Shown: positions 1 through 8,404, numbered from the stretch's first letter. The stretch: DNA of 10,330 nt from a virus (IMGVR_UViG_2541047849_000005:1-10330), one strand, 5' to 3'. The notes: generated by a model from the letters alone, not told the origin. Translations and numbers: made by a program.

Positions 1-861
1 ATGAGATTCAGCACCCCATTACGGTATCCTGGTGGTAAAGGTAAATTAACTAACTATCTATCAAAGATCATTATGATCAATGGCTTAGATGGTTGCGAAT
101 ATGTTGAGCCGTATGCTGGTGGTGCTGGAGTAGCCATTAATTTACTTTTGTCTGGGAAAGCATCACGTATACATTTAAACGATCTTAATAACGCCATTTT
201 TTGTTTTTGGCGGTCGATTCTAGAAGAAACTGATCAGTTTTGCCAATTAATTGAAAAAACTCCTGTGAATATGGATGAATGGTATAAGAATAAAAATATC
301 ATTAGTAATCAATGTGATTATTCCTCATTGGAAGTTGGATTCGCTACGTTTTTCCTTAATCGAACAAATCGGTCAGGAATTTTGTTAGGTGGTGTAATTG
401 GTGGTAAGGAACAAAATGGAAAATGGAAAATAGATGCTCGATTTAATAAGGTTGATTTAGTAAACCGTATTAAGGTAATAGCAGACCGTAAATCTGATAT
501 TTGTATCTATAACCAAGATGCTAAATCATTCTTGCAAAATACTGTAACTGGATTCCCATTAAAAACATTGCTTTATCTTGACCCTCCATATTATGTTAAA
601 GGAAAGGGCTTGTATCAAAACCATTATAGTCATGATGATCATGTCGAAATTGCTAATATTATAAAATCTAATTCAAAGCATCCATGGATTGTATCTTACG
701 ATAATACTGTTGAAATAAACAACATGTACACTGGTCTTAGAAAAATTGAGTACGGTATCAGCTATAGTGCTCAATCTAGGTACCAAGGGCCAGAAGTAAT
801 CTTTTTTTGTGATAGCATTTCTATTCCTGATGATATGGATCCTACAAGAGTCAAATTATAG
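1..861 (+). CDS. Dam-family (D12 class) N6-adenine DNA methyltransferase, 286 aa
   Basis: N-terminal AdoMet-binding region YPGGKGKL...VEPYAGGAGV (aa 9-44), FFLNRTNRSG block, catalytic DPPY at aa 194-197 (nt 580-591). Colinear with E. coli Dam motif order (WAGGK / VEPFVGAGS / LYLNRYGYNG / CDPPY) as recalled. Visibly AT-rich compared with the neighbouring int. ATG at nt 1, TAG at 859-861. Confidence 0.85.
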   Translation: MRFSTPLRYPGGKGKLTNYLSKIIMINGLDGCEYVEPYAGGAGVAINLLLSGKASRIHLNDLNNAIFCFWRSILEETDQFCQLIEKTPVNMDEWYKNKNIISNQCDYSSLEVGFATFFLNRTNRSGILLGGVIGGKEQNGKWKIDARFNKVDLVNRIKVIADRKSDICIYNQDAKSFLQNTVTGFPLKTLLYLDPPYYVKGKGLYQNHYSHDDHVEIANIIKSNSKHPWIVSYDNTVEINNMYTGLRKIEYGISYSAQSRYQGPEVIFFCDSISIPDDMDPTRVKL

Positions 862-1981
862 CTATTTTACTCCAATCTTTCCCTCGGTCATCATGGTAGC
901 GATCTGTTTGCTGCTGGGTTTTATGGCCCAGTAGCTTTCTAGTATCGATCCCCTGTTCTTTGTACAGGCGTTCAGATAAAGACCTTTGTTCATGGAATGT
1001 TGCGGGTGAGCCATCACCCCAGTCAATTCCTGCTAAATCCCTCGCTTTACTGAAATTCATCGTCAATGTATTGGCTTTTACTTGCGCGCCACGTTCAGCC
1101 TGTGAAGTAGTACGAAAAAAATGTACAAGGTATGGGCTGACTGCATAGTCACGACAGCGGGCTACTACATTGCGTAAACTCCAGTTAATCGCATTGAGGC
1201 GAAGAGAAAGAGGAATTGCGATTTTGCTTCCAGTCTTTTCCTGTACGACATGAAGATGATCATCCCAAATATCGCTAAATTTCATACGCGAGATATCACC
1301 TAACCGCTGGCCAGTAACCAGTGCTAACAGCATGGCATTCCCCATATAACGATGACTGGCATCTGCGATTTCAAAGATTTTTTGCCATTCTTCAAGACTT
1401 AACCGTTGTCGGGTAATTTTTCTTCTGGGCTGTTTGGTGGCTAATGCCGGGTTATAGCCCGGGGGGACTTCTCCGTAGTGTTGCGCCTCCTTGAATACAT
1501 CAATCAGGACGGAACGAACTACTTGCGCCATTCTCGGCTGTCCGACGGCGATATACTCGTCAAGCAACTGGGCTATATCCCTGACATCAACGGCTGAAAT
1601 TAACTTCAGTCCTGCTCGTTCCCTGAGCAAGGATACTGGTTTGGCTTTCTGTTTATAGGTATTGAGCTTTATATCGCCACTTTTCAGTCTGTCATCCTGG
1701 ATTGCTTGATAGCGATCTAACCAGGTTGACGTTGTGATTGCTTTTCCTTTGCTGGTTGCGATTCTGTCACTGATAGCCAGAATCTGCCGGGTTCTTTGCT
1801 CAGCCAGGCGTGTATTGGCCTCAGTGGCAATAGCAATGGCTTCAGCTTCGTTTGTGCCCAAAGAATGAAACTTCCCGGTCACTGGATGCTTATATCGCCA
1901 ATAAACTTTATTTACTTTTCTGCTATAGAGTGGATACAAGTTCGGGACTGAAACATTATTTTTACGTGGTCTGGCTGCCAT
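851..1981 (-). CDS. int: Lambda-family tyrosine integrase (site-specific recombinase), 376 aa
   Basis: N-terminal arm-binding-type region (PNLY...YWRYKHPVTGK), catalytic-domain blocks LALVTGQRLGDISRMKFSDI and C-terminal HEQRSLSERLY...LLGHKTQQQTDRYHDDRGKDW closely parallel lambda Int (HELRSLSARLY...LLGHKSDTMASQYRDDRGREW), with the catalytic Tyr in DRYHDDRG. Stop TGA on the complement of 851-853. Confidence 0.92.
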   Translation of the reverse strand: MAARPRKNNVSVPNLYPLYSRKVNKVYWRYKHPVTGKFHSLGTNEAEAIAIATEANTRLAEQRTRQILAISDRIATSKGKAITTSTWLDRYQAIQDDRLKSGDIKLNTYKQKAKPVSLLRERAGLKLISAVDVRDIAQLLDEYIAVGQPRMAQVVRSVLIDVFKEAQHYGEVPPGYNPALATKQPRRKITRQRLSLEEWQKIFEIADASHRYMGNAMLLALVTGQRLGDISRMKFSDIWDDHLHVVQEKTGSKIAIPLSLRLNAINWSLRNVVARCRDYAVSPYLVHFFRTTSQAERGAQVKANTLTMNFSKARDLAGIDWGDGSPATFHEQRSLSERLYKEQGIDTRKLLGHKTQQQTDRYHDDRGKDWSKIAII

Positions 1982-2207
1982 TACTTAAAATCCTTTGTAG
2001 AATAATAGAATCATTTTTCTTGATGACAGGAGTAACTAATTCCCCAACTAACTCTGCGTCCTCACGTACTCGCCATAGTCGACCTTGTTTCATTGCCGGT
2101 GGACAAAATAAATTCTGCTTAGCATAACGACGCAATGTGGACACACTTGGAGGATTACTCCTAAATTTTTCCGCAGCCCATTCCTCAAGTGTCAGCATTT
2201 GAAGCAT
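1962..2207 (-). CDS. xis: Excisionase (Xis, lambda-like), about 81 aa
   Basis: Small basic protein MLTLEEWAAEKFRSNPPSVSTLRRYAKQNLFCPPAMKQGRLWRV resembling lambda Xis (MYLTLQEWNARQRRPRSLETVRRWVRECRIFPPPVKDGREYLF). Its 3' end overlaps the int start by 20 nt, as in lambda. Start chosen at the second in-frame ATG (2207), which has a GAGG about 9 nt upstream; the ORF-track start at 2222 is an alternative. Confidence 0.75.
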   Translation of the reverse strand: MLQMLTLEEWAAEKFRSNPPSVSTLRRYAKQNLFCPPAMKQGRLWRVREDAELVGELVTPVIKKNDSIILQRILSNGSQTT

Positions 2208-2250
2208 TTTTGATAACCTCATTTCTTTTGCTACAAAACTATTTCACTAG

Positions 2251-2799
2251 TTAATTTCGCTGTCTGGATTGTTTATGTATCTTATGCAGCTCTTTAAAGC
2301 GTTCCATAAACATCCCGTAGGCATGGCCCGGTGCCAGTGGAATCACTTTGAACATCTCTGTTGCCGGGATACCTTCCAGTACAGACCAGAAAGAGCCATC
2401 ATCAAGCCCGAGATCGCGGCGTTCGGTTGCCAGCATGATGAGATCGGCATATTTCACAGGCGTGCTCATAACCGGGGGTAACCCGTATTTCTCACGGATT
2501 ACGGCGTCTATTTTTTCTTCCATCCGTTTATAGTCAGGAAGAAGGCGTTTCAGTGGCGCGGGGATGTCCTGACAATAAGCTTCTGTTGCATCATGCATTA
2601 ACGCTTCAAAAGCAAATTCCTGCGGTACCAGCTGGCTGCAAAGCACCGCATGTTGGGCGACGCTGTAGAAGTGTGAAAGATGTCCTGCAAAGCGACAGAT
2701 ATTTGAAAGGGAAACCGCGATATCGTTAATAACGATGTCGTCTTTATTTATCCTGTCATAATAAAAATGCTTCCCAGAAAAAGTTTTAATAAATGACAT
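2251..2799 (-). CDS. yfdR: HD-domain phosphohydrolase, YfdR-like (prophage 5'-deoxynucleotidase family), about 182 aa
   Basis: HD-domain metal-ligand pattern: H in FAGHLSHF, HD in ALMHDATEAY, downstream D in ATERRDLG. Start placed at the internal ATG (2799) preceded by GGAGAA; the 21-codon upstream extension to 2862 has no RBS. Position between xis and a YfdQ-like gene matches the K-12 CPS-53 yfdQ-yfdR order as recalled. Confidence 0.7.
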   Translation of the reverse strand: MSFIKTFSGKHFYYDRINKDDIVINDIAVSLSNICRFAGHLSHFYSVAQHAVLCSQLVPQEFAFEALMHDATEAYCQDIPAPLKRLLPDYKRMEEKIDAVIREKYGLPPVMSTPVKYADLIMLATERRDLGLDDGSFWSVLEGIPATEMFKVIPLAPGHAYGMFMERFKELHKIHKQSRQRN

Positions 2800-2893
2800 T
2801 TTGTTCTCCACGTTATTTGCGCTGCACCGCACAGAATTCTGGTAAAAGGAAGCCCTCACCATCCGGCGATTATTGAGTTAATTACGTTTCCAT

Positions 2894-2915
2894 AAATGCC
2901 CCCGCAGGGGCATTT
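2894..2915. other. Perfect 9-bp stem / 4-nt loop hairpin (AAATGCCCC-CGCA-GGGGCATTT) in the intergenic gap between the YfdQ-like and YfdR-like genes
   Basis: Inverted repeat read directly from the sequence. There is no clean U-tract after the stem on the minus (transcribed) strand, so it is more likely an RNA-processing, stability or attenuation element than a strong terminator. Confidence 0.35.
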
Positions 2916-2927
2916 GCAGTAATGAAA

Positions 2928-3752
2928 TCAGGCGGTGAAAGTACCAATAAAGGTTTCTACTTTGCTGTCTTTGAATTTCTCAACAAGCAGATCACGAAAT
3001 TCGTTAGCCATTTCTTCCTGCACCGCTTCCAGCTGAATAATGCGCAGAACCAGTACAGGACGATCGCCAGTGATAATGCTGAGGCGTAATTTAAATGAAC
3101 GTTCTTTCAGGCCTTCAAACGGAACGCATTTAAATTCAAATGCCACTGGCATAATGTCTTTGGTCTTCGCTTCGACAGACTCCATCAGGGAGCGTTTGCC
3201 GCTGAAGTCATTATCTTCAAAATCAGCGGTCTGGTTCGCTTCAATTGTGATTTTACGGATAGCTGCCGCCGCTTTGGTTGCCTGAATGGCGTCACCATTA
3301 GCATCAAAGCCCACAAGGTAGTCGGCCCAGTCTTCAATCCATTCTGCCAGTGATTTCTGGGAGTTACGCTCGCCATTAACAGACAACAGAGCAGAGAACG
3401 GTGCTGTCTTTTTCAGTTTGAGAGTGGCGGTGTTATCTGCGTGACCTGGTTCATCAATAGTACCCAGGTTAAGCACACTGACGGCACGCATATTATCAGC
3501 ATCGATAAAGCAGCGGGTGCCTTCATCTGCAAGATCTTTAGAATAACGGGTAAAGTCATCGATGCTGGCAGTGGAAAGCGCACCACGGAAACGGAAGCGA
3601 TTTAAATTAAATTTTTCCAGATCATGAATGCGGAAATTCTCAGGCAATGCCACAGCATCGGCACCAATCTTACTGATAATTTCATTAACACCCTGAGCAG
3701 AAATAAGGGCATGGATTTGATTAATTGCGGTTGCGTCTAAGTTCTGAGACAT
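2928..3752 (-). CDS. Phage early protein, YfdQ-like (DUF2303-type), 274 aa
   Basis: Long ORF with a GAGGA RBS 7-11 nt upstream of the ATG. Size (274 aa) and position immediately upstream of the HD-domain gene match prophage yfdQ as recalled. Family name is tentative; no catalytic motif recognised. Confidence 0.65.
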
Positions 3753-3817
3753 AATAAGTCCTCACTATATAAAGATATTCAGTGATGAGATAAATAATCA
3801 GTTAATTAATAACGATA

Positions 3818-4180
3818 TTAATGGCCTGCTGCGCGGAGTTTTCCGTCAGGTTCACCGGCAAGAGTCAGTAATTGTCCCTGGTCTTCCTGCAGAATAGTCA
3901 GGCGACCACCGCGATTGACATACATCGGCGTTTCGGTGGTGTCTTCTTCGGAAATTTTCCCGCGGTTAGTCGGGCGAACATATGAGAGTTTGTGTTTGAT
4001 TTTCACACGGTTCTCATCAAATGGTTCGATTTCCAGGTTGAGTGAGACCTTACCTTTGGTTTTCGTGTTCATCACACCGGAAGCGACTTCACTGAGAACT
4101 GCGCCGATTTTGGTTTCAAATACGCCGCCGTCCAGCTCCCCGATAAATGCCTGCACATCAGTACTGCGTTCGCTAGCCAT
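3818..4180 (-). CDS. Hypothetical phage early protein, 120 aa (positional equivalent of yfdP)
   Basis: ATG at complement 4178-4180 preceded by GAGGAG (ATGATGAGGAGCAGCAAAATG). Sequence beginning MASERSTDVQAFIGELDGGVFETKIG has normal composition. The ORF-track extension up to 4498 is Arg/Cys-rich and implausible. Confidence 0.65.
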   Translation of the reverse strand: MASERSTDVQAFIGELDGGVFETKIGAVLSEVASGVMNTKTKGKVSLNLEIEPFDENRVKIKHKLSYVRPTNRGKISEEDTTETPMYVNRGGRLTILQEDQGQLLTLAGEPDGKLRAAGH

Positions 4181-4324
4181 TTTGCTGCTCCTCATCATAT
4201 CGACCCTGCAAGGCCGATTAGTTTCTCCACAAAACAGAGAAGAACACCTGCGGTGGCAGCCGCCCGGATGGATTGGGTTATGAGCCCGTCGTCCGGTGAT
4301 GCTCTTCTCTGTTTTGTAAAAAGG

Positions 4325-4411
4325 ACGGTACCAGCCGGAAGCAAGGGTACAAACTGGTACCGCCAGGACTACACACAGCATAAAGTTGTGGTGCCGGGTG
4401 CCTCCCGGTGC
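4325..4411. repeat. Cluster of six GGT(A/G)CC motifs: 9-bp inverted repeat CGGTACCAG(4325-4333)/CTGGTACCG(4353-4361) plus three direct GGTGCC copies (4389-4394, 4396-4401, 4406-4411)
   Basis: Read directly from the sequence. Lies in a GC-rich non-coding island between divergently oriented gene blocks; could be operator or recombination-site remnants. Confidence 0.4.
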
Positions 4412-4617
4412 CTGGCGAAGGTTGCACACCAGACGGGTGGGTATCCACAGAAGGTCGACTGTCAGCCTCAACCTTAACCCGCGTGCGCTGAGCCGCATTC
4501 ACCACAACGCTAAGGATTCTCTCTGGTTGAAAATACTTAGCTGTTATGTGCCTGTCTTTTCACCACTTCAGGCTCGGTGGTATCCTTTTAAGCCCGTATA
4601 CATAAAAGGAAAATCAA

Positions 4618-4767
4618 ATGACTTTTGATGAAAAAGAACTTGATAATGCAATTAATAAAATCATCGTAACGTCGCTCTTTTCCTGTCTCAGCGACACTCA
4701 GCAGAAACAGTTCTACGAATCGGCTTTCAACATGATCGAGCGTTGTTGTTTCTGCGATGCCGACTAG
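4618..4767 (+). CDS. Small ORF, 49 aa (MTFDEKELDNAINKIIVTSLFSCLSDTQQKQFYESAFNMIERCCFCDAD), hypothetical; possibly the N-terminal stump of a deleted gene
   Basis: ATG at 4618 preceded by AAAGGAAAA 7-8 nt upstream; stop TAG at 4765-4767. Not in the supplied ORF track, presumably below its length cut-off. Overlaps the 5' end of the tape-measure reading frame in another frame. Confidence 0.3.
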   Translation: MTFDEKELDNAINKIIVTSLFSCLSDTQQKQFYESAFNMIERCCFCDAD

Positions 4768-6302
4768 TTACAACGGCTGATTTTCAGAACATGATGCAGA
4801 TGCTGGTGCGTCAGGGGATCCCGGCAGAAAACATTCTTGGCGGTGTGGGTAAAGCGACAGCTTATCTTGCGGTACAACTGAAAAAAACACCGGAAGCGGC
4901 TGCCGAGTTTGCCGCAAAGATGCAGGATGCTACCGGAACGGCGTCAGAAGACATGATGGGGCTGTTCGACACTATCCAGAAGGCGTTTTATCTGGGCGTT
5001 GACGATACCAACATGTTGTCCTTCTTCACTAAAACCAGTTCTGTTCTGAAGATGGTGAACAAGGACGGTCTTCAGGCTGCACAGAGCCTTGCCCCCATCA
5101 GCGTCATGATGGATCAGATGGGGATGAACGGGGAGTCGGCAGGTAATGCCCTGCGAAAAGTTATCCAGTCCGGATTAAGCGTTAAGAAAATCAGGGACGT
5201 CAATAAAATCATGGCCCGCCAGAAACTCGGGGTACAGCTCGATTTTACTGATGGCAAAGGGAGTTTTGGCGGTCTTGATAACATGTTCAGGCAACTGGCA
5301 AAGCTGCGAAAACTGACCGACGTTAAGCGAACCGGTGTACTTAAGGCAATATTTGGTGATGATGCCGAAACCCTTCAGGTGGTCAATGCTCTGATCGATA
5401 AAGGAAAGAATGGTTACGATCAGATCCAGCAGAAGATGCATAAACAGGCCAGCCTGAATAAACGTGTTCAGGCCCAGCTTGGTACGCTGTCCAACCTGTG
5501 GGAGGCAATGACGGGGACCGCAACTAACGGCCTTGCGGCTATTGGTGGCGCATTTTCTGGTGACGCCAAAAATATCACGCAATGGCTGGGGGAGTTAGGG
5601 GAAAAATTCACGAAGTTTGCGGATGAAAATCCCCGGGTTATTCGCGGCGTCGTCGGGCTTGCTGCCGGTCTTGCGATTCTGAAACTGGGATTGATGGGCG
5701 TGGGCAGTGCCATCAGTATCGTCAGCAGGATCATGTCGATGACGCCGATTGGCATGATTGCGACGGCGATTGCCCTGGCTGCGGGATTAATTATCACTAA
5801 CTGGGATGTTGTCGGACCTTATTTTAAGAAACTCTGGGAAACCATTAGTCCTTATTTTGAGGCTGGCTGGGAACTTCTGAAGAAGGTTTTTGCCTGGTCG
5901 CCGCTGGGGATGGTGATCAATAACTGGGGACCGGTTGTTAAGTGGTTTCAGGATATGTGGGATAAGCTGAAGCCGATTATTGAATGGTTTACCGACAGTT
6001 CCGGTGACACGGTCGATGCCATTAACTCGGCGCAGTGGGGCGCGGGTGCTTATGATGCTTATGAGACGGGAATACCGCCACGGGGATACACTCCTTATCC
6101 GGAGGTGGATCCGGCTCAGGCAAACAACGCCTCCGGTGCCACAGGCTCGAATCCCTTCATGATTAATAAAGTTACCGCGCCAAAAGTTGATGGTGAGATC
6201 AAGGTATCATTTATAAATATGCCACCAGGTATGCGGGTTACGGAAACACGCTCCAGTGGCATTGATATAAATCACGATGTTGGCTATACCCGATTTTGGT
6301 AG
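4743..6302 (+). CDS. Phage tail tape measure protein, C-terminal portion (probably a 5'-truncated remnant; pseudogene candidate)
   Basis: Internal hydrophobic stretch (VIRGVVGLAAGLAILKLGLMGVGSAISIV...IGMIATAIALAAGLIIT) followed by a Trp-periodic region (W every 9-11 residues, about nt 5797-5990), both typical of tape measure proteins. The frame is open from 4659, with a TTG at 4743 and the first ATG at 4791, and no convincing RBS. At about 519 aa it is shorter than the usual 700-900 aa, and the upstream sheath/tube/chaperone genes are absent. Confidence 0.7.
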   Translation: MLFLRCRLVTTADFQNMMQMLVRQGIPAENILGGVGKATAYLAVQLKKTPEAAAEFAAKMQDATGTASEDMMGLFDTIQKAFYLGVDDTNMLSFFTKTSSVLKMVNKDGLQAAQSLAPISVMMDQMGMNGESAGNALRKVIQSGLSVKKIRDVNKIMARQKLGVQLDFTDGKGSFGGLDNMFRQLAKLRKLTDVKRTGVLKAIFGDDAETLQVVNALIDKGKNGYDQIQQKMHKQASLNKRVQAQLGTLSNLWEAMTGTATNGLAAIGGAFSGDAKNITQWLGELGEKFTKFADENPRVIRGVVGLAAGLAILKLGLMGVGSAISIVSRIMSMTPIGMIATAIALAAGLIITNWDVVGPYFKKLWETISPYFEAGWELLKKVFAWSPLGMVINNWGPVVKWFQDMWDKLKPIIEWFTDSSGDTVDAINSAQWGAGAYDAYETGIPPRGYTPYPEVDPAQANNASGATGSNPFMINKVTAPKVDGEIKVSFINMPPGMRVTETRSSGIDINHDVGYTRFW

Positions 6303-6393: not shown

Positions 6394-6924
6394 ATGAAAG
6401 GCTATATCACAGCAAGTGTAATTCTTGGAGCAGCGGCTATTTTTTCATCTCTCATAATCTCTGGCAACATCTCCTTTAAAGATGAACATATTATTCAGTT
6501 ATCTGGAGGAGCCATAAAACTTGGTGATGTTTATAAAGAAAATAAATTGATAAGTGCAAAGATTATTTTTCCAGATAATCAGGGTGAACAGATTCTTGTT
6601 GTCGACGGCAATCCTGAAAACTTTAAGGAGGATTTTCAGGGGAAATTAAATAAAGTAATAAAAACTTTAAATGCGTCAAAGAAAAAAGATGAAGAGAAAG
6701 TTAGCCTGGATAATTTAAGTGTTATTGAAGAGTCTAAACTAGAGCTCGTTTCTGCGGTGCGTTACTCTGCTCAGTATGTTCCTATGTTTACTCTGACGCT
6801 GGACAAAAAAGAAATTACCATGCCTAAAAATACGGTAATATTTCCATTTGCCAGCGATGAAACAGCTAAGTATTTAAATGAACAACAGCAAAAGTATAAA
6901 GATTCGTTGTTTCTGACTCGCTAA
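6394..6924 (+). CDS. Moron-encoded membrane-anchored protein of unknown function, 176 aa (single N-terminal hydrophobic span, Lys/Glu-rich C-terminal domain)
   Basis: Clean ORF in an AT-rich insert. N-terminus MKGYITASVILGAAAIFSSLIISG is an approximately 20-residue hydrophobic signal-anchor; no cysteine, so not a lipoprotein. Flanked by its own promoter candidate and an intrinsic terminator. No family recognised. Confidence 0.8.
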   Translation: MKGYITASVILGAAAIFSSLIISGNISFKDEHIIQLSGGAIKLGDVYKENKLISAKIIFPDNQGEQILVVDGNPENFKEDFQGKLNKVIKTLNASKKKDEEKVSLDNLSVIEESKLELVSAVRYSAQYVPMFTLTLDKKEITMPKNTVIFPFASDETAKYLNEQQQKYKDSLFLTR

Positions 6925-6985: not shown

Positions 6986-8404
6986 ATGACGTGGAAAGAC
7001 AGGCTTCAGGATGCGTCATTTCGAGGTGTGCCGTTTAAGGTTGAAGAAGAAAGTGCGGGAACTGGCCGTCGTGTGGAAACGCACGAATACCCGAACCGCG
7101 ACAAACCCTATACCGAAGACCTGGGGAAAATTACTTTCCGCCCGTCCATCACGGCTTATGTGGTGGGAGATGACTGCTTTGACCAGCGCGATCGCCTGAT
7201 TGACGCGCTGAATAAACCCGGTCCCGGCACGCTTGTCCATCCGACTTACGGTGAGCTGAAAGTCTGTGTTGACGGAGAAGTTCGGGTCAGCACATCGAAG
7301 AGTGAAGGACGTATTGTCCGCTTTGACCTGAAGTTTGTCGAAGCAGGAGAACTCTCTTACCCCACATCAGGTGCGGCGACGGCGCAGGCGCTGATGTCAT
7401 CCTGTTCTGCACTGGATGACTGCATCAGTAACAGCTTCAGCGGTTTTAGTATCGATGGCGTGGCGGATTTTGTGCAGAACGACGTCGTCGGTAATGCCAG
7501 CACAATGCTTGGGTATGTTTCTGATGCGATGAAAGTGGTGGATTCTGCCGTATCGGATGCCGCCAGGCTGTTGCAGGGGGATATCTCGGTACTTCTGCCG
7601 CCGCCATCGTCAGGCAAAAATTTCGTTGAGCAGGTGCAGAAAATGTGGCGTACCGGGAAACGCCTTTATGGTAACGCCAGCGACCTGGTCACCATGATCA
7701 AAACGCTTTCTGGTGTCAGCCTCGGCAGCGATTTGCAACCGCGCGGCGTCTGGAAAATGGACAGTAAAACCACCGCCACAGCGACGCAGCAGCGTAACAT
7801 GGTTGCCAGCACCCTTCGTACGACTGCAATCAGCGAAGCGGCGTATGCCGTTACCCGATTGCCTGCGCCAACAACTTCTGCGGTGATGCAGAATGCCGCA
7901 GTGGGGCAGTCAACAACACCCGCGCAGAGCTCCGGCTGGCCTGCCGTCACGCATCCGGTGCTGAACAATGCACCGGCGGTGAAAAACACGGTTGACCTGC
8001 CAACGTGGGAAGAACTGACCGACATTCGCGACACACTGAATATGGCAATTGATAAGGAGTTGTCCCGTACAACCAGTGATGCGCTGTTTCTGGCGCTGCG
8101 CCGGGTGAAAGCAGATCTGAATGCGGATACCTGGCCTGCGGTACAGAATGACCGTTACGGCTCCCGACTGTGGCTGCTTCAGCGCAGCAAACTGACCAAT
8201 CAGCTGGTGCAGACGGTAAGGGGGTATATCCGCGAATGCCTGCAATGGATGATTGATGATGGCGTGGTGTCCCGTATTGATCTGGATATCCGCCGCACCG
8301 GGATTAATGAACTGGGTAACAGTATCACTCTCTGGCGTCGTGACGGACCGGTAATGATTTCTTTTGATGATCTGTGGAGTGCGATAACGCATGGCGGACA
8401 GTGA
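6986..8404 (+). CDS. Mu-type DNA circulation protein (gpN/gp43-like) tail component, 472 aa
   Basis: N-terminus MTWKDRLQDASFRGVPFKVEEESAGTGRRVETHEYPNRDKPYTEDLG carries the hallmark SFRGVPF...GRR..HEYP.RD block of the DNA-circulation N-terminal domain. GGAG RBS 5 nt upstream of the ATG at 6986. Confidence 0.85.
   Translation: MTWKDRLQDASFRGVPFKVEEESAGTGRRVETHEYPNRDKPYTEDLGKITFRPSITAYVVGDDCFDQRDRLIDALNKPGPGTLVHPTYGELKVCVDGEVRVSTSKSEGRIVRFDLKFVEAGELSYPTSGAATAQALMSSCSALDDCISNSFSGFSIDGVADFVQNDVVGNASTMLGYVSDAMKVVDSAVSDAARLLQGDISVLLPPPSSGKNFVEQVQKMWRTGKRLYGNASDLVTMIKTLSGVSLGSDLQPRGVWKMDSKTTATATQQRNMVASTLRTTAISEAAYAVTRLPAPTTSAVMQNAAVGQSTTPAQSSGWPAVTHPVLNNAPAVKNTVDLPTWEELTDIRDTLNMAIDKELSRTTSDALFLALRRVKADLNADTWPAVQNDRYGSRLWLLQRSKLTNQLVQTVRGYIRECLQWMIDDGVVSRIDLDIRRTGINELGNSITLWRRDGPVMISFDDLWSAITHGGQ

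Follow-up and report, generated by a model that had tools for sequence, protein, structure and literature searches.

Does a methyltransferase gene that runs head-on into a prophage integrase gene work on its own, or is it one half of a defence system? The viral sequence IMGVR_UViG_2541047849_000005:1-10330, a stretch of 10,330 nucleotides (nt) that we call the window, raises this question, as it opens with a D12-class DNA methyltransferase gene (hereafter the methylase) converging on intE, the integrase gene of an e14-like prophage. An initial annotation, made from the sequence alone, had offered two options, namely an orphan phage Dam enzyme or the modifying member of a defence system that has its partner upstream. 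The second has held, whereas the first is disfavoured by the tight linkage of the methylase to a partner gene. With a probability of roughly 0.55, we take the methylase to be the modification component of a restriction-modification (RM)-like two-gene prophage defence cassette, in which an ATPase with a probable Toprim domain is the effector.

The gene upstream of the methylase

The first 2.3 kb of the window occur in 7 of 5,426 complete Escherichia coli genomes, as against about 500 for the int-xis part alone. In all seven complete genomes with this allele, the gene upstream of the methylase encodes a 569-amino-acid (aa) "AAA family ATPase", and the look upstream that the initial annotation had called for thus meets a cargo gene and not host core sequence. 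In strains STEC388 and EC190486 the order is icd, ATPase, methylase, intE (on the minus strand), xisE, and yfdR, with the ATPase and methylase genes as the only cargo between attL/icd and int. On an IMG/VR contig (locus L096), an identical ATPase gene precedes the methylase and int. A spacer of 69 nt separates the ATPase and methylase genes, which have nearly the same guanine-plus-cytosine (GC) content (33.6% for the ATPase and 33.8% for the methylase, versus 45.7% for intE and 50.2% for icd), in line with the strong AT-richness noted at the outset, and they were acquired jointly as low-GC DNA.

The ATPase matches the Pfam families AAA_15 and AAA_21, and its top PADLOC matches are HEC-04 (E 3.4e-22), AriA, PtuA, GajA, and the retron ATPase-Toprim_I-B (E 2.1e-14, aa 222-491). 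The best stretch on the HEC-04 model covers profile positions 233-405 of 494 only and is thus partial, which leaves the protein with the HEC-04 architecture but short of full-length membership. Its N-terminal ABC-type domain has all Walker A, Walker B, and H-loop residues; invariant in 33 homologues are the Walker A motif (G35-S42), D257/E258, H291, E358/D359, and D412xD414. The spacing from E358 to D412xD414 is 54 residues versus 56 in HEC-04, in a beta-alpha-beta topology, and an AlphaFold model (pLDDT, a score of local prediction confidence, 86.5) has the OLD nuclease of Thermus, GajA of Gabija, and the OLD effector of retron Eco8 as its best Foldseek matches. The PADLOC hidden Markov models, the Foldseek ranking, and the conserved acidic residues together point to a probable C-terminal Toprim domain of the OLD/GajA type.

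The initial annotation had also considered a restriction endonuclease as the missing partner, and this part needs correcting, as the partner is no classical enzyme of that kind. No REase_II model is among the best PADLOC matches of the ATPase, and icd and intE have just the two genes between them. A classical Type II RM system was therefore rejected: no cognate restriction endonuclease gene stands beside the methylase, whose neighbour is an ABC ATPase with a probable Toprim domain.

A complete methylase of the PD-lambda-5_B family

As initially described, the window opens at the start codon of a complete methyltransferase with DPPY and EPYAGGAGV motifs (Table 1). The open reading frame (ORF) has its ATG at base 1 and its stop codon at 859-861. 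It matches Pfam PF02086 (MethyltransfD12) over aa 9-245 (E 8.7e-18, 65.4 bits against a cut-off of 22) and follows the motif order of the D12 class, with the S-adenosylmethionine (SAM)-binding motif I ahead of the catalytic DPPY motif IV. The invariant PLRYPGGK motif close behind it speaks for the ATG at base 1 being the true start; in RefSeq, the EC190486 copy (locus L002, 10001-10861) is annotated from an internal ATG (263 aa), with the upstream ATG and PLRYPGGK intact. The protein can be aligned end to end with 18 homologues (56-77% identity) in which all catalytic motifs are invariant, so that it is neither truncated nor decayed and a pseudogene is ruled out. The initial annotation had named ordinary host core upstream and truncation of the enzyme as findings that would refute it, and neither was made.

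The prophage in the window is clearly defective, with a truncated tape-measure gene and a fusion of its DNA-circularisation gene to gp46 (see below), and one might see the methylase as an inactive leftover within it. We consider this very improbable: the ORF has its full length and invariant motifs, the allele is 99.7-100% identical among seven genomes (from pig, chicken, mink, and human sources), and the exact protein cluster is present on 511 contigs.

In PADLOC, the methylase matches PD-Lambda-5_B (PDLC04018) with an E-value of 1.9e-121 and 402.8 bits, aa 2-280 lying on profile positions 3-280 of 291, and it also matches the REBASE-derived MTase_II model (E 6e-103). An AlphaFold2 model (pLDDT 80.6, predicted template modelling score 0.82) adopts the D12 (Dam-like) fold, and its top Foldseek matches are 7M6B (E 5e-13), E. 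coli Dam, DpnM, and T4 Dam, at 14-24% identity. A phmmer search of the PDB reached only 7M6B, with E. coli Dam, T4 Dam, and DpnM not found at E 1e-3, and the score on NCBIfam TIGR00571 (dam) is 61.3 bits, under the cut-off of 114.85. By sequence, the earlier label "Dam-like" thus appears apt at the level of the D12 family only, and not in the sense of a Dam orthologue.

PD-lambda-5 was recovered from E. coli ECOR7 by functional selection as "ParB/HEPN, methyltransferase" (RCQ13837.1, RCQ13838.1), was protective against 9 of 10 phages tested, and required for its cloning a host from which the mrr region had been removed (Vassallo et al. 2022, PMC9519451). The need for this deletion indicates that PD-lambda-5 methylates DNA in vivo. 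A canonical pair is found in a Desulfovibrio prophage (locus L007), where a 478-aa PD-Lambda-5_A (E 5e-65) accompanies a methylase 60% identical to that of the window. The cassette studied here was ruled out as a canonical PD-lambda-5, as its upstream gene is not PD-lambda-5_A: this model is absent from the best PADLOC matches of the ATPases of three loci (L001, L002, and L005), while true A proteins match it at E 1e-16 to 1e-190.

Target recognition can be approached through a loop at aa 117-143 that is nearly invariant among homologues of 55-77% identity. By analogy with the beta-hairpin of Dam, it is probably a DNA-contacting target-recognition hairpin; in the AlphaFold2 model, aa 125-146 form a low-confidence (disordered) stretch. 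As for the target itself, E. coli K-12 already tolerates GATC methylation, and the mrr-region deletion required by the relative PD-lambda-5 in K-12 is an indirect hint, by analogy, against GATC. A methylome paper on ST131 states no specificity for the related enzymes.

Linkage of the methylase family to two types of partner

To what extent does the methylase travel with a partner? In a forward survey, IMG/VR viral contigs were scanned with the methylase alignment and the neighbours at the 58 family loci were classified. At 28 of these loci the methylase has a PD-lambda-5_A-like neighbour only, at 21 an ATPase-like neighbour only, at 2 both types, and at 3 neither, whereas the flank is too short at the remaining 4. 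Hence, of the 54 family methylases whose flanks suffice, 51 adjoin a PD-lambda-5_A-like or ATPase-Toprim-like gene, compared with none of 22 distant D12 methylases in IMG/VR. At loci L044 and L069 the neighbours are of no recognised type. A reverse survey, in which viral contigs were scanned with the ATPase alignment, gave 80 loci (74 of them judgeable). The methylase lies directly downstream on the same strand at 63 loci, with gaps of -26 to 102 nt, and elsewhere in the locus at 4, and is thus present at 67 of the 74. Another 7 loci have no methylase in at least 900 nt of downstream sequence, and at the 6 that cannot be judged the contig ends within 900 nt.

The seven ATPase loci without a methylase form one clade, directly after a CI-like repressor gene. 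Members of this clade (L168-L175; in L170 at 2158-4659) are 614 aa long and 41% identical, have no methylase within 3 kb, and start 3 nt downstream of the CI-like repressor gene (with helix-turn-helix and S24 domains). The rexAB genes of lambda occupy the same position behind the CI repressor gene.

The pair itself is widespread. It stands at the int-proximal end of another lambdoid prophage (JJ1886, KCJ3K291; identities of 47% for the ATPase and 57% for the methylase; matched in 128 genomes by blastn), in phiNP, an inducible phage of Citrobacter, and in temperate phages of Vibrio and Streptococcus, and it is thus conserved across prophage families and bacterial phyla. About 135 of the 5,426 complete E. 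coli genomes carry it, including the ST131 strain JJ1886. In the GenBank record of phiNP (OR565852), the methylase ORF at 43926-44807 (locus L010, 6814-7695) was left unannotated.

Within the 69-nt spacer between the two genes lies an extended -10-like element, TGgTATTAT, conserved between E. coli and Klebsiella (L001 11945-11962), and the lineage of JJ1886 and phiNP has ATGGCCAT, a T-run, and TATACT instead. Both were seen by eye only; they suggest that the methylase may have a promoter of its own. A promoter scan of the cassette gave no enrichment (9 found versus 13.2 expected).

Such elements could allow separate expression, and they lead to the question whether two independent genes are merely carried together: an orphan methylase, evading host restriction by pre-methylation or serving as an epigenetic regulator, next to a self-sufficient ATPase-Toprim defence. 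Orphan D12 methylases are indeed common in temperate phages, HEC-04 and Old each work alone, one ATPase clade does without a methylase, and for 3 of the 54 family methylases no partner was recognised. Nonetheless, we regard independence as improbable. The adjacency at 51/54 and 67/74 loci spans ATPase identities of 27-100% and hosts from Enterobacteria to Streptococcus, the order is fixed, the gaps are short, and the methylase is also adjacent to a second, unrelated partner family; random co-carriage fails on these grounds. Moreover, the STEC388 prophage already has a "phage N-6-adenine-methyltransferase" (L001 19667-20320) in its nin region, which is the usual place of an orphan anti-restriction methylase. 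Together with the tight partner linkage, this separate enzyme disfavours a typical orphan phage Dam.

Exchange of effectors on a constant methylase

The presence of two partner types on one methylase family becomes most instructive among close relatives. The methylases of loci L049 and L050 are 93% identical, but the partner is an ATPase-Toprim protein in L049 and PD-lambda-5_A (PADLOC E 6e-108) in L050; those of L029 and L036 are 82% identical, again with differing partner types (ATPase versus PD-lambda-5_A). In a neighbour-joining tree of the methylases, both partner types are interspersed. Since methylases that are 93% identical carry different partners, the effectors are exchanged between near-identical methylases. 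The probable recognition loop is almost invariant family-wide while the partners are swapped, which gives the methylase the look of a module that stays constant and has a single specificity, and the effector that of an exchangeable part.

Two viral contigs hold three genes, in the order ATPase, PD-lambda-5_A, methylase (L026, 795-4882) or PD-lambda-5_A-like gene, methylase, ATPase (L031, 2953-6423). They may represent stages in the exchange of effectors, or else systems made up of three genes. A methylase-docking module shared by the two effectors was considered and rejected: the helical domain at the C-terminus of the ATPase (aa 440-569) is unlike the PD-lambda-5_A proteins and is retained in the methylase-less clade.

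In our opinion, this exchange is the most useful result of the analysis, as it limits the ways in which systems of the PD-lambda-5 type can operate and supplies natural swap pairs. A second unrelated effector, together with 93%-identical methylases that have different effectors, suggests that specificity has its constant element in the methylase or its mark.

How the pair may work

In the RM-like reading that we favour, the methylase would constitutively mark resident DNA (that of both host and prophage), and the ATPase-Toprim partner would be an effector that acts on the entry of unmarked DNA. The whole would amount to a minimal nucleoside triphosphate (NTP)-dependent restriction-modification-like system. 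Since one methylase serves effectors that are unrelated to each other, specificity is probably supplied by the methylase or its mark, as it is by Mod in Type III systems.

Critically speaking, several observations weigh against this reading. HEC-04, an ATPase-Toprim fusion that defends E. coli and requires its Walker A and E/DxD residues, is active as a single gene (bioRxiv 10.1101/2024.01.29.577857). P2 Old and the PARIS protein AriB are reported to act by tRNA cleavage and abortive infection (PMC12445682, PMC11464382). T-even phages, with DNA that withstands ordinary restriction, are those against which PD-lambda-5 gives its strongest protection, and this is unusual for a classical restriction system (PMC9519451). 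The ATPase clade that lacks a methylase implies that the effector is not necessarily lethal to an unmethylated cell. Furthermore, aa 345-450 of the ATPase, in its C-terminal domain, have no match in Pfam or in a PDB sequence profile; the solved structure nearest to the methylase (7M6B, "Mcbe1") shares 24% identity only; and the ATPase gene lies beyond the window, so that its presence in the source genome is extrapolated from the seven genomes and one viral contig.

The first four of these points speak for a guard or abortive-infection mechanism ("RM+Abi"), in which the ATPase-Toprim protein would be a suicide effector like OLD, PARIS, or PrrC, silenced by the methylase or monitoring it. Anti-restriction factors of an infecting phage (DNA mimics, SAM hydrolases, Stp-like peptides) would hit the methylase and free the nuclease, which would go on to cleave tRNA or DNA without discrimination and so bring about abortion of the infection, with methylation being secondary. 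The idea is rooted in the likeness to PrrC-EcoprrI and RloC, and ABC-ATPase nucleases typically sit in methylation-based systems (PrrC in EcoprrI, HEC-04 in Hma). Unrelated effectors on a constant methylase are also easily explained if the methylase is a guarded bait. On the other hand, the catalytic and SAM-binding residues of the methylase are all invariant and PD-lambda-5 methylates in vivo, so the enzymatic activity is under selection and the protein is not a mere scaffold. Moreover, a methylase that lacks a cognate restriction enzyme would make an odd target for phage anti-restriction proteins. Weighing both sides, we judge a guard mechanism rather unlikely and prefer the RM-like reading, the mechanism of which we infer.

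A broader proposal can only be put forward tentatively, and we would sooner bet against it than for it. The methylase family might be a universal platform for self-marking and recognition that serves unrelated NTPase-nuclease effectors (ParB/HEPN and ABC-ATPase-Toprim), forming a modular class of NTP-dependent RM systems in temperate phages in which the OLD-type Toprim nuclease is a methylation-sensitive restriction enzyme. To our knowledge, such a role has not been described for the OLD family. If it were true, two large defence families, restriction-modification and OLD, would be linked.

The cargo slot between icd and intE

The prophage is e14-like and integrated in icd, and its attachment site is located beyond the partner gene, inside the 3' end of icd. 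According to the initial annotation, the methylase ends 11 nt inside int and leaves no room for an attachment site or tRNA between the two genes. Both statements are correct: the genes share bases 851-861, which together with a window free of tRNA genes along all of its 10,330 nt excludes either element at this position. Klebsiella sp. BIGb0407 (locus L005) has the same convergent layout with an 8-nt overlap. A candidate terminator hairpin with a weak T tail, GCTGCTGGG-TTTTAT-GGCCCAGTAGC, is found 50 nt past the methylase stop codon, on the methylase strand and within the intE coding sequence; a consensus scan lends it weak support, and it could end the cargo transcripts inside int.

Table 1. 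Position of the features in the window, counted from its first base
Feature	Position	Strand	Basis or remark
D12-class DNA methyltransferase gene, complete, 286 aa	1..861	+	ORF; last gene of cargo cassette; PD-lambda-5_B family
PLRYPGGK motif, N-terminal, aa 6-13	16..39	+	invariant in alignments of 19 and of 24 sequences
Motif I (SAM binding) EPYAGGAGV, aa 36-44	106..132	+	E36, Y38, A39, G40, G41, G43 invariant (same alignments)
Family-invariant loop FFLNRTNRSGIL.GGVIGGK.Q.G.WK, aa 117-143	349..429	+	nearly all positions invariant across homologues
Motif IV (catalytic) DPPY, aa 194-197	580..591	+	D194, P195, P196, Y197 invariant (same alignments)
Convergent overlap of methylase and intE 3' ends, 11 nt	851..861	.	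ORF coordinates
intE, lambda-type integrase, 376 aa	851..1981	-	Pfam Arm-DNA-bind_1 E 2e-37, Phage_integrase E 1e-16; RefSeq intE
Right border of variable cargo slot	862..868	.	homology to e14-like prophages with other cargo begins here, in last intE codons
Candidate terminator hairpin	910..935	+	weak T tail
xisE excisionase	1962..2222	-	Pfam Exc E 2.1e-12; RefSeq limits 1962-2207
yfdP	3818..4180	-	
GC-rich stretch (up to 58%)	4181..4742		overlapping spurious-looking ORFs only
Tape-measure ORF, truncated	4743..6302 (~4769)		relative AHB3
176-aa ORF	6394..6924		GC 32-35%; phrog_5485
DNA-circularisation::gp46 fusion	6986..8404 (junction near 8129)		in frame

The notion of a cargo slot beyond int has likewise been confirmed, as has the statement that lit of e14 converges on intE; in K-12, lit is on the plus strand and intE on the minus strand, with a 90-bp gap. 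In boundary alignments, the icd stop codon, its terminator, and three TTATCAAAA repeats are conserved, after which the sequences diverge until homology resumes at the int stop codon. At the left edge, homology breaks off after the repeats, about 100 bp past the icd stop codon; at the right edge, megablast matches to about 500 genomes start at window 865-868, in concordance with the boundary alignment. The repeats (L001 10120-10156, outside the window) are kept in all e14-like prophages examined, and they are candidate arm-type binding sites of IntE that mark the left edge of the slot.

Different prophages fill this slot differently. K-12 e14 has ymfD-ymfE-lit, strain GPEC617 has homologues of RexA and RexB (L012 3729-4974; Pfam E 3.5e-39 and 1.1e-18), strain RM7190 has a GmrSD_N/DUF262 protein with a 216-aa ORF (L011 3174-4885), and further e14-like prophages have other genes again. 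Based on the boundary alignments and these differing cargos, the icd-intE slot is a defined, exchangeable cargo position that has repeatedly received defence genes. With Lit, RexAB, a GmrSD-like protein, or the ATPase-methylase pair as its content, it joins the known defence hotspots.

The defective prophage in the rest of the window

Compared with the 610-aa tape-measure protein of the intact relative AHB3 (locus L095), that of the window is missing ~100 aa at its start and is 99% identical over the remainder. The deletion fuses the early region (on the yfdP side) straight to the middle of the tail module and leaves the prophage defective. A second deletion relative to AHB3 has removed the baseplate assembly and baseplate V genes and joined aa 1-381 of the DNA-circularisation protein in frame to the last ~90 aa of gp46, the junction lying at a short ...LNAD/...DNAD similarity. 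The element that still carries the cassette is thus in decay, and the same is true of lit in K-12 e14.

An ORF of 176 aa with a hydrophobic N-terminus separates the tape-measure gene from the DNA-circularisation gene; it matches phrog_5485, has no Pfam match, and is present in intact relatives too; it could be a conserved moron of the tail module. The counterpart of the GC-rich stretch between yfdP and the tape-measure fragment is annotated in relatives as a frameshifted hypothetical gene.

Comparison with known systems

We found no paper that describes an ATPase-Toprim and methylase pair, and tools that require both PD-lambda-5 components would probably miss it. Its share in phage resistance and in barriers to DNA uptake is, for this reason, probably uncounted.

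PD-lambda-5 is the nearest relative on the methylase side, where the window protein is a full-length match to the B component, and both are prophage-borne two-gene cassettes with the effector ahead of the methylase. The effectors differ, being a ParB/HEPN protein (PD-lambda-5_A, ~430-530 aa) in one case and an ABC-ATPase with a probable Toprim domain in the other. With the GATC methylases E. coli Dam, T4 Dam, and DpnM, the methylase has in common the D12 fold and the succession of its motifs (SAM motif first, recognition hairpin next, DPPY last), with query-normalised Foldseek TM-scores of ~0.51-0.61, whereas identity is 14-18% only and the recognition loop is unlike theirs. Orphan phage Dam enzymes belong to the early or nin region, and not, as here, to an int-proximal slot with tight linkage to an effector.

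Type III RM systems (Mod and Res) also consist of two genes, a methylase and an NTPase-nuclease, and in the favoured model the methylase gives recognition as Mod does. However, their NTPase is a superfamily 2 helicase with a PD-(D/E)xK nuclease, in contrast to the ABC/SMC-type ATPase and probable Toprim domain of the cassette, and Mod belongs to the beta-group of methylases, whereas the D12 enzyme belongs to the alpha-group and has the effector gene in front of it. The anticodon nucleases found within Type I RM loci, PrrC-EcoprrI and RloC, resemble the pair in the genetic coupling of an ABC-ATPase nuclease to DNA methylation; they differ in that the cassette has a lone methylase without HsdR or HsdS, and a probable Toprim domain in place of the PrrC anticodon-nuclease domain.

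On the effector side, the OLD family (P2 Old, GajA, the retron Eco8 effector, and HEC-04) has the same ABC ATPase head and C-terminal E...DxD domain, although the sequence matches of the partner are partial and weak (E ~1e-22 and 1e-14). OLD Class 1 stands alone, Class 2 goes with a UvrD helicase, and others go with retrons or AriB; none of the classes is defined by an adjacent D12 methylase. Finally, K-12 e14 has its int-proximal cargo in the identical slot, from the attL-arm repeats after icd to the intE stop codon, and its last cargo gene is likewise convergent with intE, but the product is Lit, a peptidase that cleaves EF-Tu, and a 90-bp gap takes the place of the 11-nt overlap. In short, the parts are known, namely a PD-lambda-5_B methylase, an OLD/HEC-04-type ATPase-Toprim protein, and the e14 cargo slot, and it is their pairing that appears to be new.

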